A stretch of DNA of 64,000 bases from Oscillospiraceae bacterium (lineage in GTDB: Bacteria; Bacillota; Clostridia; Lachnospirales; Lachnospiraceae), in assembly GCA_963642615.1 (NCBI GenBank), contig CAVIHW010000003.1, positions 6,837 to 70,836 on the forward strand. The letters are read 5' to 3'. A program made the position numbers and the translations under genes. The notes under the pieces were generated by a model. The model did no database searches and had not been told where the DNA came from. It saw only the letters and a list, made by a program, of their open reading frames with translations. The stretch's first letter is position 1. The number at the start of each line of letters is the position of its first letter. Positions 15,146 to 57,727 of the stretch are shown in pieces.

Positions 15146-15172
15146 TACAAAAAGAAATGATGATTGCAGAAT

Positions 15173-15224: not shown

Positions 15225-15424
15225 TCTGAAATTGATAAGGAAAGAAACGTGATACCGGCACCGCCTTCCGTAATCTTGAACAAGTTTCTACAGATAAAAA
15301 AAACAGATTCGTCATTTTGACAAAAAAACTTCGTTAAGGATTTGTTATTCTTTCATTTTTAACCATGACTTTTCGGGGGGAAAGAGAGTATGATAAAAAG
15401 GTAGAAAAACGAAGGAGGTTTACC

Positions 15425-15736: not shown

Positions 15737-15740
15737 TCAT

Positions 15741-40449: not shown

Positions 40450-40595
40450 ACGAAATACTCCTTCCTTTTCATGCTTACCGACACTTGTTTACAGGTTACA
40501 AACCCGATTATCATACAGGCCGATAAATATTTTACTACAAAGGCTGAAAAAAGTCATCAGCTTTTTGATATTTTTTTAACGAAATACGATTTCCA

Positions 40596-42515
40596 CTATG
40601 AAAAACGTAAGATTGCAGTTCCGTAAGCCGGAAGCGGCAGAGATACGGAATACGGCTGCCCGTCGCATTCAGCTTTGACGGCCTTTAAAACTGGAGCTTT
40701 TTCTCCGGTTTTGTAGGCACCGTGTTCATTGTCAAGGATCACGGTATAATTGCCGCGTTTCGGTACGCCGACCCGGTAATCCGGCCGTGCGACCGGGGTA
40801 AAGTTGCATACAAACAGCAGACTCTTTTTATGATTTTTTGCGTAGCGGATGAAGCTGTAGATGCTGCGGTCGCCGTCGTTGGCATTGATCCAGGAGAAAC
40901 CGTCCCAGTCATCATCGGATTCATAGAGCGCCGGATGCTTCTGGTAGATGTGCATCAGGTCGCGCACATAGCTTTGCAGATCCTTATGCAGGTCTTCTTC
41001 TGCCAGATGCCAGTCCAGGCTGACCTTTTCATCCCACTCATGGAGCTGACCGAAATCCTGTCCCATGAAAAGAAGCTTCTTTCCGGGGTGTCCGATCATG
41101 AAGGTGTATCCGGCTTTCAGATTTGCAAATTTATCGCCAAAGAGGCCGGGCATCTTGTTGAGCATGGAACATTTTAAGTGGACAACCTCGTCGTGGGAGA
41201 GTACCAGAATGAAGTTTTCACTGTTGAAGTAGGTAAGTCCGAAGGTCATCTTGTGGTGGTTGAACTTGCGGAAGTACGGATCCAGCTTCATATATTCCAG
41301 AAAATCATGCATCCAGCCCATGTTCCATTTGAAGGTAAAGCCCAGTCCACCCTCCTTCGGGTCGTGAGTGACTAACGGCCAGGCAGTGGATTCCTCGGCA
41401 ATGACCATGGCACCGTGTCCACGCTGGGCAATGATGCTGTTTAAGTGGCGGAAGAATTCGATGGCTTCCAGGTTCTGGTTGCCGCCGTAGCGGTTTGCCA
41501 CCCACTCCCCGTCTTTTCTGCCATAGTCCAGGTAGAGCATGGAGGCCACGGCATCCACGCGCAGGCCGTCGATGTGGAACTGTTCGATCCAGTAGAGGGC
41601 ATTGGCGATAAGGAAGTTGGAAACCTCGTTCTTTTCATAATCGAAAACCTTGGTGCCCCAGTCCGGATGCTCGCCCTTTCGCGGGTCTGCATATTCGTAG
41701 AGTGCCTGTCCGTCAAAATCCGCAAGGCCGTGGGCATCTTTTGGGAAATGAGCCGGAACCCAGTCTAAGATGACACCGATGCCTTTTTTGTGCATATAGT
41801 TTACGAAATATTTGAACTCCTCCGGGGTGCCGTAGCGGGAGGTGGGAGCGTAGTAACCGGTTACCTGATAGCCCCAGGAACCATCATAAGGATGTTCGGC
41901 GATTCCCATGAGTTCCACGTGGGTGTAGCCCATCTCTTTTACGTAAGAGGCCAGTTCCGCAGCGGCCTCCTTATAGGTATAGTAGCCGTCTTTTTCCGGA
42001 CGGTTTTTCTTTTTCCAGGAACCTAAGTGCACCTCGTAGATGCTCATGGCAGCCTCACGGGGATTGGTGTTTTCGCGTTTCTGTATCCAGGTCGTGTCAG
42101 CCCAGCGGAAGGAGTCGTTCCAGGCGGTGATGGAAGCGGTGCCCGGGCGGTACTCGGCATACTGGGCAAAGGGATCTGCTTTGAAGATAACCTTTCCGGT
42201 CTGGGTCGTGATGGCAAATTTATAGAGCTCACCCGGCTTGATACCCGGAATAAACTGCTCATAGATGCCGGAGGTTTCTAACAGATGCATGGGACAGGCA
42301 TCCGGATCCCAGTTGTTGAAGTCTCCCACAACGCTGACTGATGCGGCATGGGGAGCCCATACTGCAAAGTAATAACCGGCTTTGCCGTCAAGGGTGACGG
42401 GATGCGCGCCAAGCTTGTTGTAGATCTCGTAGTGGGTGCCTTCCCCGAACAGGTAACGGTCGCCGGCGGTGATAAGGCCGGTTTCTGCGTGCTTTTTCTT
42501 ATCTCTGACTGCCAT
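40596..42515 (-). CDS. glgB: 1,4-alpha-glucan branching enzyme
   Basis: 639 aa; GH13 motifs DWVPAHF and GLRVDAVASM; CBM48-like N-terminus. Confidence 0.95.
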   Translation of the reverse strand: MAVRDKKKHAETGLITAGDRYLFGEGTHYEIYNKLGAHPVTLDGKAGYYFAVWAPHAASVSVVGDFNNWDPDACPMHLLETSGIYEQFIPGIKPGELYKFAITTQTGKVIFKADPFAQYAEYRPGTASITAWNDSFRWADTTWIQKRENTNPREAAMSIYEVHLGSWKKKNRPEKDGYYTYKEAAAELASYVKEMGYTHVELMGIAEHPYDGSWGYQVTGYYAPTSRYGTPEEFKYFVNYMHKKGIGVILDWVPAHFPKDAHGLADFDGQALYEYADPRKGEHPDWGTKVFDYEKNEVSNFLIANALYWIEQFHIDGLRVDAVASMLYLDYGRKDGEWVANRYGGNQNLEAIEFFRHLNSIIAQRGHGAMVIAEESTAWPLVTHDPKEGGLGFTFKWNMGWMHDFLEYMKLDPYFRKFNHHKMTFGLTYFNSENFILVLSHDEVVHLKCSMLNKMPGLFGDKFANLKAGYTFMIGHPGKKLLFMGQDFGQLHEWDEKVSLDWHLAEEDLHKDLQSYVRDLMHIYQKHPALYESDDDWDGFSWINANDGDRSIYSFIRYAKNHKKSLLFVCNFTPVARPDYRVGVPKRGNYTVILDNEHGAYKTGEKAPVLKAVKAECDGQPYSVSLPLPAYGTAILRFS

Positions 42516-42519
42516 ATGG

Positions 42520-43854
42520 TCAATCCTCCCTGATCTTCAGGACAACACTGCTGTTGCCTGGTAATGTAAGGTTTAATTTCCCGTTCTCAATTGGAATGAT
42601 GGAGCCATCCATCAGATTTTCTGCCCTGGAAGCGTGGATCGGAAGGGGAACAGAAAGATTGCTTTCCTGATCGTCGCTGTTTGCTGCAGTGATGCAGATG
42701 CATCCCTGTGCGTGCCGTGCAAACGCATACTGGCGGTTGGTAAGAAGAAGCTTCTGATAACGTCCGCCATGGAATTCCGGCTGCTCTGTGTGGATATGAG
42801 CAAGCGCTTTGATCTGGTCAGTAAGGTCACAGTTTTTTGCCTCACCCTCGTCTAAGGTAATGTGGGGACGAAGTGCCGTGTCGCTTTCTCGTGTCCGCAT
42901 GCCTTCCAGTCCCCATTCGCCTCCGTAATAGATGGAAGGAATGCCCGGAAGGGTAAAGAGCAGTGTCCATGCAAGCGGCAGATGCGCCTTCTTGTTCAGC
43001 TTGCTTGCGATCCGGTTTTCGTCGTGATTGTCCAGAAAGGTGTAAAGCTTTGTGCCGATGGCTTCCAGTCTCTGTACGTTGTGTGCGATCTCAAAAAAGT
43101 TATGGTCGTTGAGTCCGGAATAGAGACTTTTATGAAGCTCATAATTGGTAACGGAATGCAGCATGCCGTCATTGACCCAGCGGCCATATTCGCCATGAAT
43201 GACCTCGCCCATGAGCCAGAAATCTGCTTTCATGGAAGCGGTCTGGGTGCGCATTTCCTGCATGAACCCGAAATCCATGACGTTGGCGCAGTCCAAACGG
43301 ATGCCGTCAATGTCAAATTCCGTGATCCAGAAGCGGATGACATCGAAAAGATACTGCCGGACTTCGGGATTTTGTAAATTCAGGCAGGGCAGTTCGAAAT
43401 GTCCCTGCCAGGCCTCGTAGCCGAAGCCGTCATTGTAAGGGCTGTTCCAGCCAAAATTCACACCCTTGTACCAGCCGCAGTAACGGGAATTTTCGCGGTT
43501 GTTCTGAATATCCCGGAAGGCAAAAAACTCACGGCCGGTGTGGTTGAATACTCCGTCTACAACAACTTTGATCCCGGCTTCGTGACAAAGCTTTGTAAAA
43601 TGCCGGAAGCCTTCGTTGGTGCCGATCCGTCGGTCGACAAGCTTGTAATCCCTGGTGTCATAACCATGGGAGGAGGACTCAAAAAGTGGTCCGATGTAAA
43701 GGGCTGTGCATCCTAAGGATTCCATATGGCTGACCCATTTGTCCAGTTCCGGAAAATGATCCGAAACAGCGTCCTCGGTATTTGTAAAGGGCGCTCCCAG
43801 CATACCCAGCGGATAAATGTGATAAAATACAGCTTTTTCATACCATGATGCCAT
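42520..43854 (-). CDS. cytoplasmic GH13 alpha-amylase-family glycosidase
   Basis: YHIYPLG..., DGVFNHTG, GIRLDCANV, GEV motifs. Confidence 0.85.
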   Translation of the reverse strand: MASWYEKAVFYHIYPLGMLGAPFTNTEDAVSDHFPELDKWVSHMESLGCTALYIGPLFESSSHGYDTRDYKLVDRRIGTNEGFRHFTKLCHEAGIKVVVDGVFNHTGREFFAFRDIQNNRENSRYCGWYKGVNFGWNSPYNDGFGYEAWQGHFELPCLNLQNPEVRQYLFDVIRFWITEFDIDGIRLDCANVMDFGFMQEMRTQTASMKADFWLMGEVIHGEYGRWVNDGMLHSVTNYELHKSLYSGLNDHNFFEIAHNVQRLEAIGTKLYTFLDNHDENRIASKLNKKAHLPLAWTLLFTLPGIPSIYYGGEWGLEGMRTRESDTALRPHITLDEGEAKNCDLTDQIKALAHIHTEQPEFHGGRYQKLLLTNRQYAFARHAQGCICITAANSDDQESNLSVPLPIHASRAENLMDGSIIPIENGKLNLTLPGNSSVVLKIRED

Positions 43855-44648: not shown

Positions 44649-44880
44649 GCAGCGAATACTTCCTTTCCTGGATCTGATGAATTTCAGTATAACATGATGC
44701 AGGCATCCTGTGCAACCGTGAGGCAGTTTGGCGAGATCATATTTGTCGAACACGGTCGTCTTATGCGGGCGTTCTTTCTTGACGCAGGGCGGATAGTCGA
44801 GTATGATAAGCCCACGATCAACGCGTCAGTCCGATGCGGATTTCAAGAGATGTTATTTCAGCCGGTTCGGCAGTATTTTC

Positions 44881-45432
44881 ATGATGAAGTGTAATGGTAT
44901 AAAAAGGTGGTGGTATCTCATAGGATATGAAAAGGGATATCTGGTACTGTGTGCAGGTCTTGCGGTCTGTGCCTGGACAGATTTCAAATTCGGGAAGGTG
45001 CAAAATGGCTGCCTGCTCTTTCTGGCATTTGCAGGTGCCCTGCACAATGGTGTGGATTTTTTTGCACCGGCGCTCATATTTTTGACAGTGGGAATGTGCC
45101 TGTTTCGATTTCGCGTCATGGGAGCAGGGGATGGTAAGCTGATGGCGGTGATTGGTGGTTATCTGGGCCTGACGGACGGGTTTTATGCCATCGCCCTTGG
45201 ATTTTTCACAGGGGCAGTCTGGAGCTTGTGGAAGATGAAACGGTATGGCATAGCGATGGAACGGTTTCATTATCTCCAGGAATATGCCAAGACAACCATA
45301 CAAACGGGGGTGATCAGACCCTATGATTCCTTACAACAGCCGAAGGCCTGGCATCATTTGCCCTTTGCAGTCTGTCTGGCAGCAGGGGTGATGGGATATC
45401 TGCTTTTATCGGGTTACAGCAAGATATTCTGA
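44881..45432 (+). CDS. A24-family prepilin peptidase (CpaA/TadV-like), paralogue 1
   Basis: Polytopic; both catalytic Asp contexts present (AWTDFKFGKV and MGAGDGKLM); start ATG 44881/44884 uncertain. Confidence 0.7.
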   Translation: MMKCNGIKRWWYLIGYEKGYLVLCAGLAVCAWTDFKFGKVQNGCLLFLAFAGALHNGVDFFAPALIFLTVGMCLFRFRVMGAGDGKLMAVIGGYLGLTDGFYAIALGFFTGAVWSLWKMKRYGIAMERFHYLQEYAKTTIQTGVIRPYDSLQQPKAWHHLPFAVCLAAGVMGYLLLSGYSKIF

Positions 45433-45476
45433 ATCGTTACTGAAATTGATGGGGAAAAGCTTCAAGGGGGAAGAAC

Positions 45477-46457
45477 ATGAAAAAGAGTATGGCAGTTTAT
45501 GATGCAGACTTTCGATATGCAGACCGTCTGGCGGAGTTTGCTAATCAGCGGGAACAGGTGCCGTTTCGGGCGGTGGCCTTTACCAGTCTCGAAAAATTGA
45601 AGGCCTTTTCACAGAGGGAATCCATTGACCTTCTGCTTGTCGGGGACAGTGTAAAACAAGAACAGCTGGAAGGGATCCCTGTGGGACAGACTGTGCGCCT
45701 TAGCCAGAATGGATTGGCAAAAGAGGGAGAGGCTGCAGTCTATAAGTACCAGTCCTCGGATAGTCTTTTGCGGGAGGTGATGTCCTGGTACCAGCCCAGG
45801 GAGATCCCCGCGCTTATGAGCGTGGCCGGACAAAGAAGCCGGATCATTGGCGTATACTCTCCCATCAGTCGCTGCGGAAAAACCGGATTTGCCCTGACTT
45901 TGGGGCAGATAAAGGCCAGGGAGGAAAAAGTGCTTTATATGACCTTGGAAGAATTTTCCGGTCTTGCGGCTCTGACCGGAACTGTGTATACAGGAGGTCT
46001 TTCGGATCTGCTTTATTACTACACCCAAAGAGAGTACAGTCCGGTAAGGCTTGGGAGCGTTACCTATCGTTTGGGCGACCTGGACTACATCGCACCGTTT
46101 ACCTATGCGGAAGATAAAAACGGGATCAGCCAGGATGTTTTTGCCGGACTGATCAGCCGGATCGCAGCGGATGGAACGTACGAGGAACTGATCGTGGATA
46201 TCGGTACCTTTTGCGGAGGCGCGGAAGAACTGCTTGGAATTTGTGATGTCATCTATGTGCCGATCAGGGAAGATGCAGTATCTGCGGCCAAACTGGAGGA
46301 ATGGAAGGAATACTTAAACCGCTCCGGACGCAGTGCGGTCTGGGAACGACTGCGTTTTTTAAAGCTTCCCAAACCGGAGCTTTGGCCGTCGCGAGAAACT
46401 TATCTGGAGCGGCTTATGTGGAGCGAACTGGGAGATTTTGTACGGGAGCTGAACTGA
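45477..46457 (+). CDS. TadZ/CpaE-like protein: receiver-like N-domain plus ParA/MinD-like domain with atypical P-loop
   Basis: IGVYSPISRCGKTGFALTLG (P-x4-GKT) and LIVDIG Walker-B-like; position immediately upstream of CpaF. Confidence 0.5.
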   Translation: MKKSMAVYDADFRYADRLAEFANQREQVPFRAVAFTSLEKLKAFSQRESIDLLLVGDSVKQEQLEGIPVGQTVRLSQNGLAKEGEAAVYKYQSSDSLLREVMSWYQPREIPALMSVAGQRSRIIGVYSPISRCGKTGFALTLGQIKAREEKVLYMTLEEFSGLAALTGTVYTGGLSDLLYYYTQREYSPVRLGSVTYRLGDLDYIAPFTYAEDKNGISQDVFAGLISRIAADGTYEELIVDIGTFCGGAEELLGICDVIYVPIREDAVSAAKLEEWKEYLNRSGRSAVWERLRFLKLPKPELWPSRETYLERLMWSELGDFVRELN

Positions 46458-46528
46458 TCGATCTGGATGGTGAGAGCGCAGGAGACGAAAAAATCCGGTG
46501 TCAAAAATGGAGAATCTATGAAAAGGAG

Positions 46529-47803
46529 ATGAAAGATCGGGTGGAGAACTCAGGGGAAGCAGGCGGGGCAAAAAGGCTGCTGGAGCAGCTTCGAAAAGAA
46601 GTGCGGGATGCACTTTGCGGATTTGACCAGATTGGAGATGAGGAATTATATGACTGCATTGATCAGGCGATCGCCGGTCATGCAGAAAATCAGTATCTGC
46701 CGCTTGGACAAAGAATCGAGCTGAAAAACAGGTTGTTTGACCGTTTTCGACGTCTGGATATTTTGCAGGAGCTGGTCGATGACCCGGAAGTGACAGAGAT
46801 CATGGTAAATGGGAAAGATCATATTTTTGTGGAACGGGCAGGGCGCCTGGAACGCTGGGCGCATGGATTTGAGCAGGTGGAACAGCTCGAGGATATGATC
46901 CAGCAGATTGTCAGCAAGATCAACCGGGTGGTGAATGTAAGCAGGCCGATTGCGGATGCAAGGCTTTTGGAAGATGGTTCCCGCGTTCATATCGTGCTGC
47001 CGCCGATCGCGTTAGACGGGCCGGTCGTAACGATCCGGAAATTTCCGGAGCCGATCACGATCGACCGACTGATCGGCTGTGGATCTCTGACAGAAGACGC
47101 AGCAGCTTTTTTGAAAAAAATGGTGCAGTCCGGCTACAACATTTTTATCAGCGGAGGAACGGGATCCGGAAAGACAACCTTTTTAAATGCATTATCGGCT
47201 TTTATTCCGGCCACCGAGCGGGTGATCACCATTGAAGACTCGGCAGAGCTTCAGATCCGGCAGATCCCGAACCTGGTGCGTTTAGAGACCCGATGCGCGA
47301 ATGCAGAGGGGGAGGGTGCAGTGGAGATCAGTGACCTCATCCGGGCATCCCTCCGTATGCGCCCCAATTATCTGATTGTCGGCGAGGTGCGGGGAAAAGA
47401 ATGCTTAGATATGCTGCAGGCACTGAATACCGGACATTTTGGCCTGTCGACCGGCCATGCAAACAGTGCCGGGGATATGCTTTCACGTCTGGAAACCATG
47501 ACCCTCATGGCAGCAGACATTCCTCTTACTGCCGTACGGGGACAGATCGCCTCGGCTATCGATATCCTGGTGCATTTAGGAAGACTGCGGGACAGAAGCC
47601 GACGTGTACTGGAGATCACGGAGGTTGTTGGATACGAAGGGGGTGAGATCCGTCTAAATCCGTTGTATCGATTTGAAGAAAGGGGGGATGCGGATGAGAA
47701 GGAGCATCAGCGTGAAGCTGCAGCAACCGTCTGCGGCAGTCTCATTAAAGTCGGAACCCTCAAAAAACAGGAAAAACTCCGGGCGGCCGGCTACAGCCTG
47801 TAA
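46529..47803 (+). CDS. CpaF/TadA-family type II/IV secretion ATPase
   Basis: Walker A ISGGTGSGKTTFLNAL, ITIEDSAEL, LIVGEVRGKE, GH..STGHANS; start uncertain (ATG 46529 or GTG 46541; ORF opens at 46301, overlapping the upstream gene). Confidence 0.9.
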   Translation: MKDRVENSGEAGGAKRLLEQLRKEVRDALCGFDQIGDEELYDCIDQAIAGHAENQYLPLGQRIELKNRLFDRFRRLDILQELVDDPEVTEIMVNGKDHIFVERAGRLERWAHGFEQVEQLEDMIQQIVSKINRVVNVSRPIADARLLEDGSRVHIVLPPIALDGPVVTIRKFPEPITIDRLIGCGSLTEDAAAFLKKMVQSGYNIFISGGTGSGKTTFLNALSAFIPATERVITIEDSAELQIRQIPNLVRLETRCANAEGEGAVEISDLIRASLRMRPNYLIVGEVRGKECLDMLQALNTGHFGLSTGHANSAGDMLSRLETMTLMAADIPLTAVRGQIASAIDILVHLGRLRDRSRRVLEITEVVGYEGGEIRLNPLYRFEERGDADEKEHQREAAATVCGSLIKVGTLKKQEKLRAAGYSL

Positions 47804-47837
47804 GCAGCCGATCTGCTATGACAGCTATCACCTTACC

Positions 47838-48551
47838 ATGCAGGAAACCATGCTTGCTCTTGGAAAAGGTGTGGTCGTGAGTGCTGTGTTTTCCTATGTT
47901 TTTTACCGAAGCATGATGGCGTTTGGAATCATGATTTTCCCGGGCTGCTTTATGCTGCTTTTTCGGGAACGAAGGAAACGCCTGAAACAACAAAAGCGAA
48001 TGCTTGCACAGCAGTTTAAAGAAGCCATGGTGATCCTCGCGGCATCCTTAAGTGCGGGCTACGCCATGGAAAATGCCATGGCGGTGAGCCTGGAAGAACT
48101 GCGACTGCTTTATGGGGAACAGGGACTGATCGTCCGGGAGTTTTCCGGCATGGTGCAGCAGATCCGGACAAACCGGAATGTGGAGCAGGTGCTGATGGAA
48201 TTTGCAAAGCGCAGTGGACTTGAAGACGTACAAAACCTGGCGGAGGTTCTTAGTATCGGAAAGCGGACGGGAGGTGATCTTGGCAGCATCATGCGCCATA
48301 CGGCGGAGGTGATCCGGGATAAGATGCAGGTTAAGGAAGAAATCATCACCCTGACGGCATCCCGCCAGTTTGAGCAGAAAATTATGAATCTGATCCCGTT
48401 TTTTATCATCTTCTATGTGGAAGGCACCTCACCGGGCTTTTTTGACCAGATGTACTGCACGGGAATGGGAAGGGGGCTGATGACCATGTGCCTGATGCTG
48501 TATCTGGCAGCCTTTTGGCTTTCGGAACGGATCCTGGAGATCGAGGTGTGA
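47838..48551 (+). CDS. T2SS-F-family platform protein (TadB-like)
   Basis: 237 aa from ATG 47838; TM - cytoplasmic helical domain - two C-terminal TMs. Confidence 0.7.
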   Translation: MQETMLALGKGVVVSAVFSYVFYRSMMAFGIMIFPGCFMLLFRERRKRLKQQKRMLAQQFKEAMVILAASLSAGYAMENAMAVSLEELRLLYGEQGLIVREFSGMVQQIRTNRNVEQVLMEFAKRSGLEDVQNLAEVLSIGKRTGGDLGSIMRHTAEVIRDKMQVKEEIITLTASRQFEQKIMNLIPFFIIFYVEGTSPGFFDQMYCTGMGRGLMTMCLMLYLAAFWLSERILEIEV

Positions 48552-48553
48552 TC

Positions 48554-49807
48554 ATGAACGGGGAAAAACGCATAAAAAACAGCACAAAGGACAATAAGAC
48601 ACAAACAAACAGCAAGATCCTGGCAGCGGTCTGTGTGGGAATCAGCGTACTTTTATGGGTTTACCTGAGCTTCTTTTGGAAAGACGCAGATCCGGATCTT
48701 TTGGCCGGTCTGGTGGAGCGTGAGAGTTATGGCGGCAACCTGAAGGAACAGGAGCTTCTGGTGCATGGTCTTGGCGAAAAAGAGCAGGCAGTAACCGTGA
48801 AGGTGAGTCCCCGGGTGTATACAAAAGAAGAAGCGGATGATGTGTTTTACGCAGCCATAGAACAGCTGGGAGAACAGATCCTGGGAGAGAACGAAAGTCT
48901 GAAAACGGTCACTTCAGACCTTGTACTGCCAACGTATCTGAAAGAAAGCGGGGTGCAGATCCGCTGGCATTCCTCCGAGCCGGATGTAATGTCTTCCTCT
49001 GGAACGATTGTGGCAGAGGTGGAGAAAAAACAGGAGCTTTTTTTACAGGCAGAGCTTCGAACCGGAGATTACCGGGCAGACTATGAGATACCGGTCACCC
49101 TGGTTCCGAAGGCACGCAGCCCGGAACAGGAACTTTTGCGGGCATTTACCGATGAAGTGACGAGACTTGATGTGCAGCAGAAAAACGAAGCATATCTGAA
49201 GCTCCCTGACAGCTACCGGGGAAAAACACTTTCCTATCAAAATGCGGAAAAACAAAATTATAATGTGATCCTGCTTCTTGGATTTGTGATGGCAGCACTC
49301 CTTTTTTTGCGGGAGGATTCACAGCAAAAAGAGCAGGAAAAGAAGCGTGAGCGAATGCTTTTATTAGACTATGCCGAGGTGGTTTCCAAACTCCAGGTAC
49401 TGGTGGGAGCAGGAATGACCGTGCGCAATGCCTGGGGGCGCATGGTACATGATTATGAGGCATCGGGGCTAAAAACAGAACGGCCTGCCTATGAAGAAAT
49501 GCGCCAGACCTATTATCAGATGGAAAATGGAACGGCAGAAGGAGTTTCATTTCGCGAATTTGGCAGAAGATGCCGTTTGCAGCCTTATTTAAAGCTAAGC
49601 AGTATTCTGGAGCAGAACCGGAAAACAGGAACAAAAAACTTGCGTGAACTTTTGCGCACAGAGGTGGAGGATGCTTTTGAAATGCGAAAAAACCTTGCCC
49701 GGAGAATGGGGGAGGAGGCCGGAACGAAGCTTTTGATCCCGTTGTTCATGCTTTTGTTTATTGTCATGATATTTATCATGGTACCGGCCATGATGACCAT
49801 GGGTTGA
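48554..49807 (+). CDS. T2SS-F-family platform protein (TadC-like) with about 200-aa extracytoplasmic N-terminal insert
   Basis: ATG 48554, 2 nt after the TadB-like stop; TM1, soluble segment, TM2, T2SSF-like helical domain, C-terminal TM. Confidence 0.65.
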   Translation: MNGEKRIKNSTKDNKTQTNSKILAAVCVGISVLLWVYLSFFWKDADPDLLAGLVERESYGGNLKEQELLVHGLGEKEQAVTVKVSPRVYTKEEADDVFYAAIEQLGEQILGENESLKTVTSDLVLPTYLKESGVQIRWHSSEPDVMSSSGTIVAEVEKKQELFLQAELRTGDYRADYEIPVTLVPKARSPEQELLRAFTDEVTRLDVQQKNEAYLKLPDSYRGKTLSYQNAEKQNYNVILLLGFVMAALLFLREDSQQKEQEKKRERMLLLDYAEVVSKLQVLVGAGMTVRNAWGRMVHDYEASGLKTERPAYEEMRQTYYQMENGTAEGVSFREFGRRCRLQPYLKLSSILEQNRKTGTKNLRELLRTEVEDAFEMRKNLARRMGEEAGTKLLIPLFMLLFIVMIFIMVPAMMTMG

Positions 49808-49851: not shown

Positions 49852-50058
49852 ATGAGATGGATGAGAAACCTGAAAAATAATGATTGTGTCAAAGAATGGA
49901 CTGCTTTCTGGAACAATGAACAGGGAGTCGGTGTGATCGAGGTCGTGTTGATCCTGGTAGTTTTGATCGGTCTGGTGATCATTTTTAAGACACAGATCCG
50001 GAAATTGCTGGAAAACATTTTCAAGGAGATCGAGACGCAGTCTAAAGAAGTGTATTGA
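49852..50058 (+). CDS. Flp-type (type IVb) prepilin
   Basis: 68 aa; leader then NEQG|VGVIEVVLILVVLIGLVIIF with Glu at +5 of the predicted mature end; AGGAGG RBS. Confidence 0.7.
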   Translation: MRWMRNLKNNDCVKEWTAFWNNEQGVGVIEVVLILVVLIGLVIIFKTQIRKLLENIFKEIETQSKEVY

Positions 50059-50061
50059 CCT

Positions 50062-52002
50062 ATGACCGAAAAAAGAAACCTAAGCGGCCAGGTGACCGTG
50101 TTTGTCAGCATGATCTTAATGATCCTGTTTGCCTTTCTGTGCGTGCTTCTGGAATCGGCACGCACAGCCGGTGCAAGGTGGTATCTGCAGATGGCAGCTT
50201 CCTCTGCCCTGGATTCGGTCTTTGGTCAATATCATAAGGATCTGTGGGAGAACTATCGCCTGCTGTTTGCGGAATATGCCGGTGCAGAGGAGGTAGAGGC
50301 AGATTTCTCCGGATTTCTTACCCCGTATCTTGAGACGGACAACTGGTATCCCATGGCTTTGGAACAGGTGCAGGCTGACGAAATCGTGCGGGTTGTTGAT
50401 GGTCACGGAGCATATCTGGAAAAAGAGATCCTGGATTATATGAAATACGGAATCTGGAACCTGGATTTTCAGGGGGATGCGGTGAACCAGTTGTGGGATC
50501 AGGATCGGGAAGCAGAGGCAGTCACCGAAATGGCCGAAACCTACCGGAACCGGACAAAGGACATGTGGAAGCTGGAAAAAATCCTGGAATCTATCAGCAA
50601 AAATCTGGAGGATGAGAAGAAGGATCAGGAGAATGGCCTTCGTGCATTATCTTCTTATGACGGAGAAGGATTCCGGCGTGCAGCAAAACAGATGATCCGT
50701 GATTTAAAAAAGATGCCGGGGCTGGTGGAAAACTATGAAAAAGAGGCAGATAAGCTGGCTGCCGTCCTGGTATCTGACCGGAAGGCACAGGAGGCCAGAC
50801 AGGATCGTCTGAGTTCGGAAACTGCAGAGGCTCTGGATCGGGAAATCCGGGAGTACGAGGCTTATATTGCAGAAGACGGAAAGCGCAGGCGAGAAATAAA
50901 AAATCTGGATCCCTGGTCGGAAGCAGCAATCAGCAGGCTTGAAGAGCTGATCGAAGAATCCTATGAGGTAGAGCGGGAAATCGAGGAGTGGGAGGATGAC
51001 GACGATGAAGATGATGACAGTGAACCGGATTATGAGAGTTTATGGAGACCGGTGCGAAATGGCCTGACAAATATCACAATCCCGGCTCTGTCTTTTGTGC
51101 ATGGTGTCAAGGACAAGGAAACAGAAGGACTTTTAAAACAGGTGGAACAGCTTTATAAGCAAGGCCTGTTAAAACTTCTGGTACCGGAGGGGAAAAACAT
51201 CTCAAAAAAAACAGTGGAGACTGCGCCGCTGCCTTCGCACTCAGAACGTTATGCGGAAGATGGAGGAAGCGGCACTATGGCAGATCACATCCTGATCAAT
51301 GAATATGCCGGGGAGTTTTTCAGACAGTTTTGTACGGAAGAAACATCTGCAACGTCTGCACTGGATTATGAAATGGAATATTTGATCTGCGGAAATGCGA
51401 ACGATGAAGATAATTTAAGTGAGGTGGTACATCAGCTGCTGGCGGTGAGAGCCGGGTTGAACCTGATCCATATTCTTCGGGATACTGCTATGAGAGAAGA
51501 GGCCAGAACACTTGCAGGTGTGATCACGGGTGCGGCAGCCATAACACCGCTTGTTTTTGCGACAACATTTTTTGTCATGTCTGTATGGGCACTGGGTGAG
51601 GCACTGATGGATGTAAAGGGGCTTCTTGCTGGAAGAAAGGTGGAACTGATCAAACAAAAGGACGACTGGACGCTGAGCATGGAAAATCTCATTCTTATGG
51701 CAAAGAACGGGAAACCGGAGGCCGGCGGAGGAGATCATGGGCTTTCCTATCTGTCTTGGCTGAAGATTTTACTGTTTGTGACGCCACTGGTTCGTCAGGA
51801 TTACCGGATGATGGATGTGATCGAGCTGAACCTGGCACAGGGAAAAAGCGGATTTCGTATGCATAACGCGGTGTATCAGGTGCAGATCTCGGGAGAAGTT
51901 TGTGGAAAACATCTCTTTTTCTCGCCTGCTTTTGTGGAAAATATAACCGGAAACCGTGACAACACAATGCAGATGCAATTCCATAGTGAACGCCGCTATT
52001 AG
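50062..52002 (+). CDS. large membrane-anchored pilus-associated protein (TadE/TadG-like N-terminus, acidic coiled-coil centre)
   Basis: N-terminus NLSGQVTVFVSMILMILFAFLCVLLESAR; central charged helices with EEWEDDDDEDDDSEPDYE; C-terminal YEMEYLICG...LNLIHIL region with hydrophobic helix. Confidence 0.5.
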   Translation: MTEKRNLSGQVTVFVSMILMILFAFLCVLLESARTAGARWYLQMAASSALDSVFGQYHKDLWENYRLLFAEYAGAEEVEADFSGFLTPYLETDNWYPMALEQVQADEIVRVVDGHGAYLEKEILDYMKYGIWNLDFQGDAVNQLWDQDREAEAVTEMAETYRNRTKDMWKLEKILESISKNLEDEKKDQENGLRALSSYDGEGFRRAAKQMIRDLKKMPGLVENYEKEADKLAAVLVSDRKAQEARQDRLSSETAEALDREIREYEAYIAEDGKRRREIKNLDPWSEAAISRLEELIEESYEVEREIEEWEDDDDEDDDSEPDYESLWRPVRNGLTNITIPALSFVHGVKDKETEGLLKQVEQLYKQGLLKLLVPEGKNISKKTVETAPLPSHSERYAEDGGSGTMADHILINEYAGEFFRQFCTEETSATSALDYEMEYLICGNANDEDNLSEVVHQLLAVRAGLNLIHILRDTAMREEARTLAGVITGAAAITPLVFATTFFVMSVWALGEALMDVKGLLAGRKVELIKQKDDWTLSMENLILMAKNGKPEAGGGDHGLSYLSWLKILLFVTPLVRQDYRMMDVIELNLAQGKSGFRMHNAVYQVQISGEVCGKHLFFSPAFVENITGNRDNTMQMQFHSERRY

Positions 52003-52050
52003 ATTAGAAAAAGTTTGATCCCAACAACAAAGGAAAGGAGGTGAAAAGGA

Positions 52051-53064
52051 ATGCCCTGCTGGCAGAAAATAAAAAACCGAAAAACAAAAATAAATACCAG
52101 TGTACCTCTCCAAGTACGAAGCCCATATATCCTACAAAACCTGAGTCTGTTTCAAAAAAGAACGCGCAAATCGGTCAGCAGGGTATTCCCTTTCACCTCC
52201 CCAAATACGGATCGCCTTTCGCTTTTATGCACTGCACAAACGGGAACAGGTCGCACCCTGAGTGCATCTATGACCATAGAGGCAGCATTTACGCTTTCTC
52301 TTTTGATCTTTGCATCGCTCATTTTGATGCTTCCTGCGAAAGTCATGATGACAGAACGGAAAATGCAGGCGGGGTTGGAGGCAGCAGGAGAGGATCTGAG
52401 TCAGTTTGCCTATCTGCTTGACAGTATCAGGAACGGGAAAACGGAAAATGTCACGAGTGCAGGGGAAGCGGACAAAGCACTCAGCCTTTATGCCGAGGAG
52501 GTGGCGGCTCCGCTTTATGCCCGGACAAAGGCTTTATCTTACTGCGATACAGATCAGATATCTCATGTCAGTATGCTGAAATCATCGATCCGTAAGGATG
52601 AGGAGATCCTGGATCTTGTGATGGAATACGATATTTCCATGCCCTTTCCGGTACTTGGCCTTCCTCCTTTGCACCGGACGATCCGCTGCAGACGCAGATG
52701 CTGGACTGGACGTGAAGGACGTTATGGAGAGAATGCCGAGGCGCAAAGTGAGGAGGAACAGATTGTCTATGTGGGAAAAAACAGCACACGTTACCATCCG
52801 GACAGAAGCTGCCATTATCTGGAAAACCATTTGCTGGCGGTTGCGTGGGATAGTATCGACGGGCAGCGCAATACCAGCGGCGGTAAATATTATCCGTGTT
52901 CTTCCTGTGCAAAGAATACCAAAAAAGGAAGCACGGTTTATATTGCAGCCAGTGGAAGCCGTTACCATAGCAGGCAGGACTGTAAGGCGATCATGGCATA
53001 TGCGCGGGCGGTAAAACTGAAAGATGTAAAGTATTTGGGCGCGTGCTCCTATTGCGGAGGATGA
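52051..53064 (+). CDS. TadE-like pseudopilin with long basic leader and two C-terminal Cys/His modules
   Basis: AAGGAGGTG RBS 9 nt before ATG 52051; SASMTIEAAFTLSLLIFASLILM at residues 71-93; two YH-x4-C ... C-x2-C modules at residues 238-335. Confidence 0.6.
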   Translation: MPCWQKIKNRKTKINTSVPLQVRSPYILQNLSLFQKRTRKSVSRVFPFTSPNTDRLSLLCTAQTGTGRTLSASMTIEAAFTLSLLIFASLILMLPAKVMMTERKMQAGLEAAGEDLSQFAYLLDSIRNGKTENVTSAGEADKALSLYAEEVAAPLYARTKALSYCDTDQISHVSMLKSSIRKDEEILDLVMEYDISMPFPVLGLPPLHRTIRCRRRCWTGREGRYGENAEAQSEEEQIVYVGKNSTRYHPDRSCHYLENHLLAVAWDSIDGQRNTSGGKYYPCSSCAKNTKKGSTVYIAASGSRYHSRQDCKAIMAYARAVKLKDVKYLGACSYCGG

Positions 53065-53648
53065 GATTGGATATGGTTTCCCGGGAAGTGGGTTGTGTTG
53101 CGATACGATTTGGGATTTTTCTGATGTTTGCTTTGGCAGCATCCTGGCAGGATTATAAAACCAGACAGGTAAATGTCCGGCTGTTTTTGGTATTTGGAGT
53201 GGTCGGTCTTTTCCTCTGTCTTGGAAGCCAGATCCAAATGGCTTTCCATGCAGAAAATACAGAAGGTGTCCGGTTTTACCCGGAACTTCTTTGGAACATC
53301 TTTTGTTCCATCCTGCTTGGAATGCTGCCGGGAGCAGCTCTTTTCCTGTTTTCCCGGTGTGGAGGCGGGATCGGAGAAGGAGACTGCCTGTTTTTCCTGC
53401 TCTGTGGCTGGTACCTGAACATTTGGGATACCTGTTTTTTGCTGGGTGTGTCTGTCTTTTTATGTGGATTTGTGGGACTTGTCTATTACGTGGCGGGCTG
53501 TAGACATGGGAGCTTAGAAAGCCGGAAACGTGGGAAAACACAGTGGCCGTTTCTTCCGTTTACTGTCTTGCCGGGATCATGGATTGCCATGATGCGGTTA
53601 AGCGAGGTTATTCGGATGATGGCTGTTTCGGAAAGGGGGAGCTTATGA
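53061..53648 (+). CDS. A24-family prepilin peptidase-like protein, paralogue 2
   Basis: ATGA stop/start overlap with the upstream gene; Asp contexts SWQDYKTRQV and GIGEGDCLFF; polytopic. Confidence 0.6.
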   Translation: MRLDMVSREVGCVAIRFGIFLMFALAASWQDYKTRQVNVRLFLVFGVVGLFLCLGSQIQMAFHAENTEGVRFYPELLWNIFCSILLGMLPGAALFLFSRCGGGIGEGDCLFFLLCGWYLNIWDTCFLLGVSVFLCGFVGLVYYVAGCRHGSLESRKRGKTQWPFLPFTVLPGSWIAMMRLSEVIRMMAVSERGSL

Positions 53649-53975
53649 ATGAAGCAGAAAGTCGGATTCTTTGAAAAAGGAAAAAAGTGTTTGCAAGCCA
53701 GCATTACGGTTGAGGCGGCCGGAATCATGTCCATTGTGCTCCTTACGATCATGGTGCTGTTAGGACAGGCCATGCGCTGGAGCAGTCGGACAGCAGGAAT
53801 GTTTGTGCTGCATGAGGAAATTGAGAGAAAACGGCATCTGATCGAGTCTGCAGAGGAGGCAAAAGTAAAAGAACAGGCTTATGGAAGCGGATGGGATCTG
53901 GAAATTTCAGCACCGGTATTCCGACCGGAAAAAGCCATGAGAAGGTGGAGTCTGGTGGAGGATGGGACAAAATGA
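53649..53975 (+). CDS. TadE-like pseudopilin
   Basis: 108 aa; CLQA|SITVEAAGIMSIVLLTIMVLL, Glu at +5; ATG directly follows the upstream TGA. Confidence 0.65.
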   Translation: MKQKVGFFEKGKKCLQASITVEAAGIMSIVLLTIMVLLGQAMRWSSRTAGMFVLHEEIERKRHLIESAEEAKVKEQAYGSGWDLEISAPVFRPEKAMRRWSLVEDGTK

Positions 53976-55207
53976 ACATTAGTTATCAGCGGGAAATGAA
54001 ACGAAATTACCTGATCATTGAGGCCGAGGTGCAGGGTGAGGTGCCGTTTGAACAGATCATGATGGAACAGAATCCGATCGATGGGGTGCTCCATTTTCAG
54101 GTAAGGGAAAAAGATACGGATATCCGTTATTTTTACGAGATCACATCAAAACAGCCGTTGTCCCGTCTTCTGGAGGGACAGTCGATCCGTGCAGCCCAGA
54201 TCCGTGCGCTGGTGTGGGGGATCGCACAGGCACTCGATCATATGGAGGCATATCTGTTAAGTGAAAATAGTGTACTTTTAACCCCGGATTATCTGTATGT
54301 GGAGCCGGAAAACCTGAAAGTGTGGCTGTGCGTGATCCCCGGGCTGGAACGTGATTTTCCGGAAGATTACAGCCGCTTTCTGGAATATTTATTGGGAAAG
54401 GTCGATCATAAGGATAAAGAGTCTGTGGTTCTGGCCTATGGCCTGTATCAGGAAACCAGAAAAGAAAACTATGGTATGCGGGATATTCTCCGGCTCGCGC
54501 AGAAGCTTCAGGACGGAAATGACACAGAAAGGGATCCGGATATGGAGGATCAGCCGGGAGTGCAGCAGTCGTATGAAACCAATGAACCGGAAGAAACACT
54601 GCGAGTCAGTCAGACACAGGCAAATGCCGTGCGGGAAACGGGAAGCCTGTTTGGCCGCTGGAAACAGCGCAGGAAGGTGCGCAAAGAAGAAAAACAGCGC
54701 GAACTGGAACGAGAGATGCAGATGCCATGGGAGTCGATCTTTGCCGGGGAAACACAGTCGGACTATGGCACGGCTGTTTCCCGGCCAGAGGAAAAAGGCA
54801 GGGTGCGCGAAAATCCAAGCCATCCAGAAAAGCGAAACAGTGCACCTGTGGATTCCCGCGCAAAGCAGGGAAATGGCACGGTGCTTTTGAATCCCCAAAA
54901 GAATGATCATGGAACAGGAGTGCGAAAACTAAAGGCGTTAGATGCCGGTGAGACGGATATAGAGATCGCATATTATCCGTTTATTATAGGAAAGCAGGAA
55001 AATCTGGTAGATTATGTACTGGATCGCGAGACGGTCAGCCGTCTGCATCTGCGCATTGACCAGAAAGAAGAGCATTATTATGTGCAGGATCTGAATTCCA
55101 CAAACGGAACCGAAGTGGATGGCCGTATGCTGGAAAATAACGAAACAATTGAGATCCGGGAAGGAACTGATATAAGCATAGCAGGGATCCGATATCGGTT
55201 TTTATGA
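53972..55207 (+). CDS. FHA-domain protein with uncharacterised N-terminal domain
   Basis: ATGA overlap with the TadE-like gene, GGAGGATG RBS; C-terminal FHA (IGKQ...VSRLHLRI...VQDLNSTNGTEVDG). Confidence 0.8.
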   Translation: MNISYQREMKRNYLIIEAEVQGEVPFEQIMMEQNPIDGVLHFQVREKDTDIRYFYEITSKQPLSRLLEGQSIRAAQIRALVWGIAQALDHMEAYLLSENSVLLTPDYLYVEPENLKVWLCVIPGLERDFPEDYSRFLEYLLGKVDHKDKESVVLAYGLYQETRKENYGMRDILRLAQKLQDGNDTERDPDMEDQPGVQQSYETNEPEETLRVSQTQANAVRETGSLFGRWKQRRKVRKEEKQRELEREMQMPWESIFAGETQSDYGTAVSRPEEKGRVRENPSHPEKRNSAPVDSRAKQGNGTVLLNPQKNDHGTGVRKLKALDAGETDIEIAYYPFIIGKQENLVDYVLDRETVSRLHLRIDQKEEHYYVQDLNSTNGTEVDGRMLENNETIEIREGTDISIAGIRYRFL

Positions 55208-55334
55208 GTACCGGTAACAAAAACGGGGATTTTGTACATGGATTTTTCGGCTAAGACACAGTAAAATAGATCATGGAAACGGTTCGGCAGAATTGGAACG
55301 TATGCAATCTATCGTTGCACAGAACGGAGTTTAC

Positions 55335-55982
55335 ATGAACGAATATCAGAATCCTTATTATATGGTGCCGCAGCGTCGGCCCCGTGCCTGGGTGAACAAT
55401 ACGCTCATTGTTTTAAATATCCTGTATTTTCTTTATCTGGAGCTTTTGGGATCCACGGAAGATGCGTACTTTATGCTGGAGCATGGAGCGATGTACGGTC
55501 CGTTTATCCTGGAAAATCATGAGTATTACCGTCTTCTGACAGCCATGTTTATGCACTTTGGCATCAACCATATTGTGAATAACATGCTGGTTTTATTTGT
55601 GCTTGGAGATAATCTGGAGCGGGCACTGGGAAAGGTGAAGTATCTGCTCTTTTATCTGATCTGCGGAGTAGCAGCCAATGCAGTCTCGCTGCTGTTTGAA
55701 ATGCCGAAAAGTGACTGGTCAGTGGGAGCCGGAGCTTCCGGTGCTGTTTTTGGTGTAGTTGGCGGCCTGATCTATGTGGTGGCTGTCAACAAAGGCCGGC
55801 TGGAAGATTTAAATAGCAGACAGCTGGTTGTGATGGCTGCTTTTTCCCTGTATCTGGGATTTACCAGCACCGGAGTGGATAACACCGCCCACGTGGCAGG
55901 TCTGATCATCGGAATCATCCTGGCAGTCATTTTATACCGCAAACCAAAGCGTGCTTGCAGAGCGGATATTTGGAGTGTATAA
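55335..55982 (+). CDS. rhomboid-family intramembrane serine protease
   Basis: HFGINHIVNN, GASGAVFGVVGG (catalytic Ser) and AHVAGLIIG (catalytic His). Confidence 0.85.
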   Translation: MNEYQNPYYMVPQRRPRAWVNNTLIVLNILYFLYLELLGSTEDAYFMLEHGAMYGPFILENHEYYRLLTAMFMHFGINHIVNNMLVLFVLGDNLERALGKVKYLLFYLICGVAANAVSLLFEMPKSDWSVGAGASGAVFGVVGGLIYVVAVNKGRLEDLNSRQLVVMAAFSLYLGFTSTGVDNTAHVAGLIIGIILAVILYRKPKRACRADIWSV

Positions 55983-56114
55983 TGTGAGATAAGCAATGAA
56001 CAGTGCTGAAAACAGGCAGAACGCAATGGCGGTGCTTGCACAAGCCGTTGCAGAAGGCGAGGTTTTGACAGGGCGAAAGCCCGCCTGTGAAAGACCGAAT
56101 GGAGGAAACGAACA

Positions 56115-56531
56115 ATGCGAGACGACAACTGTATTTTTTGTAAGATTGCAAACGGCGAGATCCCGTCTGCAACCGTATATGAGGATGATGATTTCCGTGC
56201 GATCCTGGATCTGGGTCCGGCAGCCAAGGGTCATACCCTGATTCTTCCAAAGAATCATTATAAGGATCTGTGCGAGGCAGATGAGAATGTTATGGCAAAG
56301 ATCCTGCCGCTTGCCGCAAAGATTGGAACATCCATGAAGAGCCGGCTTGGCGCAAGCGGATTTAATGTGGTTCAAAACAATGGAACCAGTGCGGGTCAGA
56401 CCGTGTTCCATCTGCATGTGCATGTGATTCCGCGTTATGAGGGTGGTCCGGACATGGTAAGCTGGGCACCGGGTAAAGCAGAACAGGATGAGCTGGCGCA
56501 GACGGCAGAAACGCTGAAGGCAGGACTGTAA
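56115..56531 (+). CDS. HIT-family (histidine triad) nucleotide hydrolase/transferase
   Basis: CIFCKI... and HLHVHVIP triad. Confidence 0.9.
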   Translation: MRDDNCIFCKIANGEIPSATVYEDDDFRAILDLGPAAKGHTLILPKNHYKDLCEADENVMAKILPLAAKIGTSMKSRLGASGFNVVQNNGTSAGQTVFHLHVHVIPRYEGGPDMVSWAPGKAEQDELAQTAETLKAGL

Positions 56532-56583
56532 GGCAGCAGCTGTAAGAGCAACGGAAATAAAACGGACAGCTGCAAAAACAGTG

Positions 56584-56630
56584 AAAAGGGCATGGTACAG
56601 ACGGAAGATGCTGTACCGTGCCCTTTTTGC
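56584..56630 (+). terminator. intrinsic terminator after the HIT gene (convergent with murG)
   Basis: 15-bp stem AAGGGCATGGTACAG / CTGTACCGTGCCCTT (one G-U on the plus strand) plus T-run. Confidence 0.65.
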
Positions 56631-56644
56631 TGTTGCATAGATGT

Positions 56645-57727
56645 CTATTGATCTGCTTCTTCTTTTTCCGCATAGGAAGCGATCAGTCCGATCACGATGC
56701 TTACAGCATCGGACAGATCACTCTGTTCCATGGCATCAAGAAAGGCCTTGCGGTTTTCGTAAGTGTTCTCAATGGCGCTATACAGGGTGTCATCTGTAAC
56801 ATTTTCTTCTTCGAGAACGGTGGAGAAGCCCTGTTTTTCAAAGGACCTTGCATTTAAGATCTGGTCACCGCGGCTGGCTGCAGCAGAAAGCGGGATCAGG
56901 ACGTTTGGTTTTCTGAGCGCCAGGATCTCGCAGATGGAGTTTGCGCCTGCGCGGGACAGAACAAGGTCGGCAGCTGCAAACAGATGGCGCAGAGGTGCAT
57001 CCACATATTCGTACTGTACATAACCGGTACGTCCGATGAGACTGTCGTCTAAGTGACCTTTTCCACAGATATGGATCACCTGGTATTTCTCAAGAAGCTT
57101 TGGAAGCAGCGAACGAACGGCATTGTTGACGGCAACTGCTCCTAAGCTTCCGCCAATGACCATGATGATTGGTTTATCTGCGGAAAGTCCGGTATAACTG
57201 AGTCCGGTCATGCGGTCGCCCTGAAGCAGCTCGCGCCGGATGGGGGAACCGGTAAGCACTGCCTTGTCCTGCGGCAGATACTGTAAGGTCTCCGGAAAGT
57301 TGCAGCAGACCTTGGCAGCAGATGGGATGCAGATCTTGTTGGCGAGTCCCGGAGTCATGTCAGACTCATGGATGATGGTCGGGATCTTAAAGTGTTTTGC
57401 AGCCAGGACCACAGGTACAGCCACAAAGCCGCCCTTGGAAAATACGACATCCGGGCGATATTTCTTTAAGAGAGCGCGAGCCTCTGCATAGCCCTTGATC
57501 ACGCGGAAAGGATCGGAAAAATTTTTCAGATCAAAATAGCGGCGGAGCTTGCCGGATGAGATACCGTCATAAGAAATCCCGGCACCCTCGATCAGTTTTT
57601 TTTCGATGCCGTTGTAGGAGCCAATATAATGAACCTCGTAGCCGCGCTCCTGCAAAGACGGCAAAAGAGCCAGGTTCGGTGTAACGTGTCCGGCTGTACC
57701 GCCGCCGGTCAGAACGATTTTTTTCAT
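56645..57727 (-). CDS. murG: UDP-N-acetylglucosamine--N-acetylmuramyl-(pentapeptide) pyrophosphoryl-undecaprenol GlcNAc transferase
   Basis: GGGTAGHVTPNLAL glycine loop; 360 aa GT28. Confidence 0.9.
   Translation of the reverse strand: MKKIVLTGGGTAGHVTPNLALLPSLQERGYEVHYIGSYNGIEKKLIEGAGISYDGISSGKLRRYFDLKNFSDPFRVIKGYAEARALLKKYRPDVVFSKGGFVAVPVVLAAKHFKIPTIIHESDMTPGLANKICIPSAAKVCCNFPETLQYLPQDKAVLTGSPIRRELLQGDRMTGLSYTGLSADKPIIMVIGGSLGAVAVNNAVRSLLPKLLEKYQVIHICGKGHLDDSLIGRTGYVQYEYVDAPLRHLFAAADLVLSRAGANSICEILALRKPNVLIPLSAAASRGDQILNARSFEKQGFSTVLEEENVTDDTLYSAIENTYENRKAFLDAMEQSDLSDAVSIVIGLIASYAEKEEADQ

Follow-up and report, generated by a model that had tools for sequence, protein, structure and literature searches.

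A probable TadE-like modular pilin with a long leader and two predicted zinc modules in a Lachnospiraceae Tad/Flp pilus operon

We examined a 64,000-nucleotide stretch of the genome of an Oscillospiraceae bacterium (hereafter the window, with positions counted from its first letter) and focused on a 337-residue open reading frame (ORF) at 52051..53064 on the plus strand, which sits in a complete Tad/Flp operon on the same strand. Its translation, its homologues, and independent gene calls point to a TadE-like minor pilin of modular build, with a long basic leader, a class III-signal hydrophobic segment, a pilin-like head, a flexible linker, and two C-terminal modules that each carry one His and three Cys. 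The reading that we favor, at a probability of roughly 0.6, is that this protein serves a Tad/Flp (type IVc) pilus of the Lachnospiraceae type as a minor (pseudo)pilin of modular design, which would present two zinc mini-domains, as judged from sequence comparison and structure modeling. Comparison of related loci marks the gene as a fixed component of the Tad/Flp pilus operon of Lachnospiraceae.

Start codon, leader, and pilin-like core

The translation of the ORF agrees with the sequence quoted in a first-pass annotation of this DNA, which had held that a strong ribosome-binding site (RBS) fixes the start at ATG 52051. We found this site as claimed: the Shine-Dalgarno sequence AAGGAGGTG, read at 52035..52043 on the plus strand, has a GGAGG core at a gap of 9 nt from ATG 52051, and the reading frame cannot extend farther upstream, owing to an in-frame stop codon (TGA) at 52042. 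Reading through the frame from codon 1 to codon 74 yielded zero in-frame ATG, GTG, or TTG codons in between, which confirms, up to codon 74, the further statement that no start precedes the TadE-type segment. An RBS also lies ahead of the equivalent upstream ATG in most of the orthologous loci that we fetched, and independent gene callers had arrived at the identical 337-residue product in three NCBI assemblies of metagenome-assembled genomes (MAGs) and in one Logan assembly contig. A start at Met74 (ATG 52270) was considered and rejected: No Shine-Dalgarno sequence lies upstream of it, the MPF and TLQVR motifs that precede it are conserved, and most homologues have Leu at this position and therefore cannot make the short form.

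The leader comprises residues 1-72 (52051..52266, plus strand), with a presumed location in the cytoplasm and presumed removal at A72|S73. In the window protein, it contains 13 Lys and Arg residues versus a single Asp or Glu, giving a net charge of +12, and its residues 1-66 were predicted to be disordered in the AlphaFold2 (AF2) model, with a predicted local distance difference test score (pLDDT) below 50. Among 208 members of the family, the leader has a median length of 55 residues (5-95% range, 28 to 82; full range, 17 to 106) and a net charge of +8, and it usually begins with MPF, MSF, MLF, or MLC. At ~21 residues past the start, 159 of these 208 members carry a [TPSA]LQ[VA] motif, seen in the window protein as VPLQVR (52102..52119, plus strand; V[TP]LQV[RQ] as the consensus of the family alignment). 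With a mean identity of 18%, the leader is otherwise the least conserved region of the protein, and yet as a feature it was kept across 88 loci. The unusually long, Lys/Arg-rich leader to which the first-pass annotation had drawn attention is thus real and conserved across the family, and the alignments identify the long N-terminus as a family feature rather than an annotation artefact. Documented prepilin leaders measure 6 to 26 residues, or ~15 to 30 residues for type IVb pilins (PMC4471445), a range outside which both the 72 residues found here and the family median fall. Reviews describe prepilin leaders as ending in Gly or Ala (PMC10191384), and in this respect the hydrophilic leader, ending in A72, does conform to a class III signal: At -1, directly ahead of the (S/A)-x-T-x-E segment, 146 members have Ala and 61 have Gly, so that one of the two is present in 207 of 208.

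Behind the leader, the hydrophobic segment and a long alpha-1 helix occupy residues 73-127 (52267..52431, plus strand), as seen in both the alignment and the AF2 model. The predicted cleavage context is A72|SMTIE, and the hydrophobic segment SMTIEAAFTLSLLIFASLILM spans residues 73-93 (S73-MTIE77-AAFTLSLLIFASLILM), such that ~21 hydrophobic residues follow the site, with Glu77 at +5, where ~20 residues with a Glu at +5 are typical of a class III signal. T75, E77, and A78 are almost invariant in the family alignment. The full-length AF2 model has a mean pLDDT of 79 and shows a helix of 52 residues (76-127, pLDDT >90) together with a beta-sheet, in keeping with the lollipop arrangement of pilins. 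The head itself, residues 128-223 (52432..52719, plus strand), is modeled as a second helix (139-163) and a four-stranded sheet (170-216), mostly at pLDDT >90, with an RRxW-G motif at its end; it has a mean identity of 41%, a median net charge of -7, and conserved residues Y193, P198, F199, R216, W218, and G220. An acidic, flexible linker follows at residues 224-237 (52720..52761, plus strand), with pLDDT <50 for residues 224-230 and a mean identity of 20%. A Foldseek search of the full model against the PDB returned no match at E <= 0.001, solved pilins included. Among 28 relatives, 3 were touched weakly by Pfam TadE (best E, 0.001), and in RefSeq, certain orthologues from Lacrimispora go under the names "TadE family protein" and "pilus assembly protein." Together with the operon context, the class III signal-like N-terminus, and the predicted pilin fold, these names support the earlier proposal of a pilus-associated, minor pilin-like protein.

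The two C-terminal modules and their relatives

Two modules of 45 to 55 residues each make up the C-terminal part, as delineated by alignment, AF2 modeling, and profile comparison. Module 1 spans residues 238-288 (52762..52914, plus strand), with the putative ligands H249, C254, C283, and C286 and an insert RNTSGGKY, and module 2 spans residues 294-337 (52930..53061, plus strand), with H306, C311, C332, and C335. The spacing reads YH-x4-C-x28-C-x2-C in module 1 and [YF]H-x4-C-x20-C-x2-C in module 2; all 91 sequences having both modules in the strict YH pattern follow it, and the remaining 11 sequences have a Phe before the module-2 His or a nonstandard spacing. Across the 102 sequences, Y248 and all eight ligands are invariant, and R247, Y256, N259, R273, N274, Y280, Y317, S333, and Y334 are almost so. 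A profile-profile comparison of module 1 with module 2 gave a probability of 97% (E = 9e-11), by which the two modules are homologous to each other, differing in the eight-residue insert (RNxSGGKY) that is found in module 1 and not in module 2. The claim of two C-terminal copies of one Cys/His module was hence well founded, down to the invariant His-Cys3 sets. These modules are also the best-conserved region of the protein, with mean identities of 61% (module 1) and 62% (module 2), and their median net charges are +4 and +1, respectively.

In the full-length AF2 model, both modules appear as compact beta-beta-alpha-beta-alpha folds at pLDDT >90, with the first two ligands located after strand 2 and the CxxC closing the domain on its C-terminal side. 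Residues 232-337, when modeled on their own, reached a pLDDT of 89.6. Each module probably binds one Zn(II). The zinc-knuckle fold that had been expected was not what the prediction produced, the modules being mini-domains of the above topology instead. We controlled the specificity of the module hidden Markov model (HMM) on 7,842 six-frame ORF pieces from 1.15 Mb of the window and the fetched loci, where it matched 88 ORFs, all of this pilin family and none else. Using a profile of the head alone, we found no complete relatives that lacked the modules. The module is present at orthologous loci, where its absence had been named in the first-pass annotation as an observation that would speak against its proposal.

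Beyond this pilin family, the module is widespread. When we scanned 1.84 billion cluster representatives in full by HMMER, using the module profile, 3,916 of them matched at E <= 1e-3 and 1,976 at E <= 1e-10, and the grafted module occurs in thousands of nonpilin proteins too, as in the concept of modular pilins (PMC6916266). We observed arrays of 7 to 15 tandem copies in membrane-anchored proteins of 590 to 1150 residues from Clostridia and Christensenellales. The copies in these arrays read Y[YW]H-x4-C-GM...C-P-x-C, and the proteins run from a cytoplasmic N-terminus through transmembrane segments and a Ser/Thr/Pro linker to the modules; a common N-terminus, GK-FRFGKM-LNVS-KGIATK, was noted in three array proteins (P0110, P0113, and P0156) and at a fetched locus (L088, 3593-5623). 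Secreted proteins with four module copies were also among the profile matches. None of the array and secreted proteins that we inspected was covered by Pfam or NCBIfam, with the sole exception of P0254, which matches the module profile at E = 2e-23, scores 28.1 bits with Pfam Ada_Zn_binding (cutoff, 23) over a match confined to GYxPCxxC, and weakly touches the NCBIfam entry "L17, sunset domain variant." The gene neighborhoods of the multimodule protein P0156 and of P0254 were uninformative.

A tblastn search of plasmids with a four-module protein gave two matches, both to "hypothetical proteins," and a tblastn search of phage records with the modules gave three matches. The one that we inspected, MT835706.1 ("UNVERIFIED: Bacteriophage sp."), turned out to be a bacterial contig with the same tad operon, and we set the phage link aside. 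On this contig (locus L091, 5353-6318 and 6483-8247), the pilin homologue is separated from the peptidase gene by an insertion that encodes serine-recombinase-like and TnpB-like ORFs, as recognized by eye from the translations.

The structural comparisons gave a tentative hint of a relation with the zinc-binding domain of Ada. In a Foldseek search of the C-terminal model against BFVD, the entries at ranks 1, 4, 12, 18, and 26 were named "Metal binding domain of Ada," and the top matches also carried the name "DNA methyl phosphotriester repair domain," all at E >= 0.23; this limit also holds for rank 1, for all its probability of 0.99 and its root mean square deviation of 3.0 A over 105 columns. 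A recent classification based on ECOD (2025) describes "ADA_N-like" domains as remote homologues of Ada's N-terminal zinc finger, located mostly at the C-termini of secreted or membrane-anchored Gram-positive proteins, e.g., the Clostridioides difficile ComEC/Rec2-family protein Q187P0, Cwp27, Mycobacterium tuberculosis ArfC, and an LGFP-repeat protein, with their function stated to be unknown (PMC12353581). The loop behind the second strand of these domains supplies two of the ligands, and a short helix at the C-terminus supplies the other two (PMC12353581). The predicted topology of our modules agrees with this description, and each has the corresponding four ligands (H249/C254 and C283/C286; H306/C311 and C332/C335). 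They further resemble ADA_N-like domains in their size of ~45 to 55 residues, in their small sheet with short helices, and in their C-terminal site on an extracytoplasmic Gram-positive protein. They differ in that the first ligand is His rather than Cys, giving H-x4-C rather than C-x3-C, in that they stand in tandem and are attached to a pilin, and in that the window protein has no direct HMM or Foldseek-PDB match. Through an indirect link, we place the modules as probable, divergent members of the ADA_N-like (Ada_Zn_binding-related) zinc-finger group, with His in the position of the first Cys. The same indirectness applies where the first-pass annotation had placed such a module on ComEC-type proteins, a statement that fits the ADA_N-like domain reported on Q187P0.

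A modular minor pilin weighed against other readings

As a modular minor pilin, the protein would act as follows. The preprotein would insert with its leader in the cytoplasm and its C-terminus outside, and it would be cut at A72|S73 by one of the two A24 prepilin peptidases encoded in the operon, most likely the one encoded immediately downstream. The mature subunit, now without its long leader, would enter a priming or tip complex with two other products of the operon, the TadG-like DUF5702 protein and the small TadE-like one. Each mini-domain would bind one Zn(II), and the modules would be displayed at the pilus end on the flexible linker as binding modules for a conserved ligand. Being strict anaerobes, the hosts would allow such extracellular Cys-Zn sites to remain stable. 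The long leader with its MPF and TLQVR motifs would most likely act in the cytoplasm as a recognition or timing signal for the processing or docking step. Modular pilins have a precedent (PMC6916266), and Tad tip complexes with exposed variable domains have been described, as has a peptidase that serves only some of the minor pilins (PMC12075869).

Several observations weigh against this picture. The 72-residue leader is two to three times as long as the documented range (PMC4471445), and cleavage is, for this reason, not to be taken for granted. Scans of Pfam and NCBIfam with the whole window protein and with each of its parts gave zero matches at E values up to 10, and so not even the TadE HMM (PF07811) recognizes the protein at E <= 10. 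Known adhesive minor pilins have variable tips, whereas the modules here are strongly conserved, and their conservation points to a conserved partner rather than to a variable host receptor. The relation to Ada is faint in direct comparisons: In hhalign, the module profile matched Escherichia coli Ada (whose sequence we checked against 1ADN and 1WPK) with a probability of 28% over 17 residues, at the CxxC end only. Foldseek of the C-terminal model against the PDB gave no match at E <= 0.001 and did not retrieve 1ADN, 1EYF, or 1U8B, and searches of PDB sequences with the C-terminal sequence and two module profiles found chance matches only.

Taking the leader length at face value, one could regard the protein as an uncleaved bitopic assembly factor that is retained in the membrane, with residues 1-72 left in the cytoplasm as a tail for docking to the platform, to TadZ, or to the forkhead-associated (FHA) protein, and with extracellular zinc modules that bind the cell's own wall polymers and so guide the pilus through, or anchor it in, the thick wall of the Gram-positive cell. 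A leader with conserved motifs and a length far beyond that of any documented prepilin leader (PMC4471445) would suit such a role, and the strong conservation of the modules is what a self ligand would lead one to expect. Other Gram-positive proteins combine ADA_N-like domains with CW_binding_2, LGFP, and membrane anchors (PMC12353581), and the long arrays of the same module sit on membrane-anchored proteins. We nevertheless consider this reading unlikely, since the signature of Ala or Gly at -1 and Glu at +5 is strictly kept and the extra A24 peptidase gene is always adjacent. Moreover, apart from its two short motifs, the leader is poorly conserved (18% identity, 17 to 106 residues) and predicted to be disordered, which fits a removable peptide better than a domain.

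Two further readings concern the modules, and to each we assign little probability. By analogy with Ada, the protein might be the DNA receptor of a Tad-type competence pilus, whose zinc modules would bind the DNA backbone and whose retraction would hand the DNA to ComEA/ComEC. Transformation of Micrococcus luteus does require Tad genes (PMC4322843), as the first-pass annotation had correctly stated; module 1 is basic, with its median net charge of +4, and modules as well conserved as these would suit a universal ligand. What makes this role improbable is that module 2 is near neutral and the pilin head acidic (-7), that the Ada link is weak at the sequence level (the 28% of hhalign), and that the Cys which in Ada is the methyl acceptor and first zinc ligand is replaced by His. 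Moreover, the operon and its conserved flanks, the regions considered in this respect, hold no competence genes, and the arrays of 7 to 15 copies sit on proteins without a link to DNA uptake. Alternatively, the modules might be purely structural zinc clasps with no ligand of their own, which in anaerobes without disulfide machinery would stabilize the C-terminal end of the subunit, a task that falls to the disulfide-bonded D-region in classical pilins. The invariance of the ligand sets in the 102 sequences and the stability of extracellular Cys-Zn sites in hosts that are strict anaerobes are in line with this idea. We find it hard to reconcile, however, with the modules being separate domains outside the head, behind a flexible linker of low model confidence, with the many almost invariant nonligand surface residues (R247 through Y334, listed above), and with the independent occurrence of the module in many other architectures. 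We retain the modular minor pilin, in which the two modules would serve as binding domains, as our favored reading.

Operon, distribution, and significance

All genes of the operon described here lie on the plus strand. Its assembly genes, assigned from Pfam matches and translations, occupy 44803..49807 and encode the first A24 prepilin peptidase (44803-45432), a TadZ-like protein, the CpaF ATPase, TadB, and TadC, such that the flp, tadA/cpaF, tadB, tadC, and tadV genes expected of a tad locus are all found alongside the pilin gene. The TadC-like protein (48488-49807) has an aBig_2 ("atrophied bacterial Ig") domain ahead of its T2SSF domain, an insert that is conserved in related loci. The Flp major pilin (49852..50058; Pfam Flp1_like) has a leader of 25 residues ending at G|VGVIE. 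It is followed by a DUF5702 protein of 646 residues (50062..52002; Pfam DUF5702, E = 3e-78, and synteny) with an N-terminal hydrophobic anchor, which by its position may be a TadG-like large minor pilin. Its anchor, LSG|QVTVFVSMILMILFAF, resembles a pseudopilin signal but lacks the Glu at +5, and the protein contains a strongly acidic stretch, EEWEDDDDEDDDSEPDYE.

Downstream of the long-leader pilin gene lies the second A24 prepilin peptidase gene (53043..53648; Pfam Peptidase_A24, conserved position), whose start is likely TTG 53067, as in MAG annotations. In related loci, this gene always lies directly downstream of the long-leader pilin gene. Both catalytic-type Asp motifs (WQD... and GEGD) are visible in its translation, and Asp motifs are present in both A24 peptidases of the operon. 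The second peptidase is a candidate for a dedicated processing enzyme, and the presence of two such enzymes suggests a division of labor between Flp, with Gly at -1, and the pseudopilins, with Ala at -1. A small TadE-like pseudopilin follows (53649..53975; translation and conserved position), with a leader of ~18 residues and the context QA|SITVE, and the last gene encodes a DUF6382 + FHA protein (53891..55207; Pfam and synteny). This FHA gene closes the operon in every locus examined, and its conservation hints at a phospho-Thr-dependent control of the Tad pilus. The Thr of VTLQV in the leader was considered as a phospho-Thr site for the FHA protein of the operon and set aside, since the clade of the window protein itself has VPLQV.

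The gene order Flp1_like, DUF5702, pilin gene, Peptidase_A24, small TadE-like, and DUF6382/FHA was kept even around homologues of 25 to 39% identity. On the upstream side, the operon is flanked by glycogen-branching and alpha-amylase genes and an ArsR/HTH_5 regulator (39697-43854), and on the downstream side, by rhomboid, HIT, and MurG-like genes (55293-57727). Both flanks are syntenic in distant relatives, which gives the tad operon the look of a long-standing part of the chromosome and not of a mobile island. In one Lacrimispora-like locus (L005), a ZnuA/ABC-3/ABC_tran zinc-uptake cluster with a Fur-family regulator lies directly after the tad operon (12905-16302), between the FHA and rhomboid genes; its presence is suggestive given the zinc modules, and it is absent from this position in the window. 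When we scanned the tad operon for promoters and terminators, nothing exceeded the shuffled background. A protein search for relatives of the pilin returned 109 clusters, all of them unnamed or "hypothetical," and of the genomes scanned, one for each species, at least 269 carry a relative. The carriers are overwhelmingly Lachnospiraceae, among them Lacrimispora, Hungatella, Ventrimonas, Brotaphodocola, and Lachnoclostridium.

Among known systems, the TadE/TadF pseudopilins of Aggregatibacter actinomycetemcomitans, Bifidobacterium breve, and Caulobacter (CpaJ/K) share the N-terminal hydrophobic segment with Glu at +5, the hydrophilic leader, the small alpha/beta head, and the neighboring flp, tadG-like, and prepilin peptidase genes. 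The protein described here departs from them in its leader (72 residues, family median 55, versus 6 to 26), in the residue at -1, which is Ala rather than Gly in ~70% of members, and in the addition of two predicted C-terminal zinc modules. Neisseria ComP, the DNA receptor of a competence pilus, is alike in concept alone, as a pilin-family subunit with an extra surface, and we found no sequence or structural similarity to it. Modular minor pilins and Tad "Tip" complexes, such as PilB/PilC of Streptococcus sanguinis and TadG/KilN in Myxococcus and pathogens, likewise carry a C-terminal graft that is presumably exposed at the tip, and KilA provides the precedent for a dedicated short peptidase that serves a subset of minor pilins (PMC6916266, PMC10191384, and PMC12075869). 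In our case, however, the graft consists of two tiny predicted zinc mini-domains and not of a large vWA, lectin, or variable domain, it is placed on a subunit of TadE rather than TadG size, and it is the most conserved part of the protein instead of the most variable one. Three traits have not been described for Tad minor pilins: a motif-bearing leader of two- to threefold length, an ever-adjacent second peptidase gene, and a pair of predicted C-terminal zinc modules that is best conserved of all regions. We regard the finding as modestly novel, in that a TadE-like modular pilin is a known kind of protein, whereas its exceptional leader and the addition of probably ADA_N-like zinc modules are new.

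Tad pili are colonization factors in gut bacteria. Lachnospiraceae are a dominant family in the human gut, but to our knowledge, their Tad pili have received essentially no study. A far-reaching version of the above, which we hold to be a long shot, is that the Ada-related modules form a DNA-binding tip and that the leader (55 to 100 residues) and its dedicated peptidase gate the release of the tip subunit into the pilus. If a DNA-binding tip were indeed present, it would mean an unrecognized route of natural transformation in many gut Lachnospiraceae. Cultivable carriers exist among strains of Lacrimispora, Ventrimonas, and Brotaphodocola, such as Lacrimispora xylanisolvens DSM 3808, Ventrimonas faecis, and Brotaphodocola catenula, and the pilus-displayed module would offer a tractable way to the ligand of a mini-domain that is found in thousands of Gram-positive extracytoplasmic proteins and that can reach 15 copies per protein.

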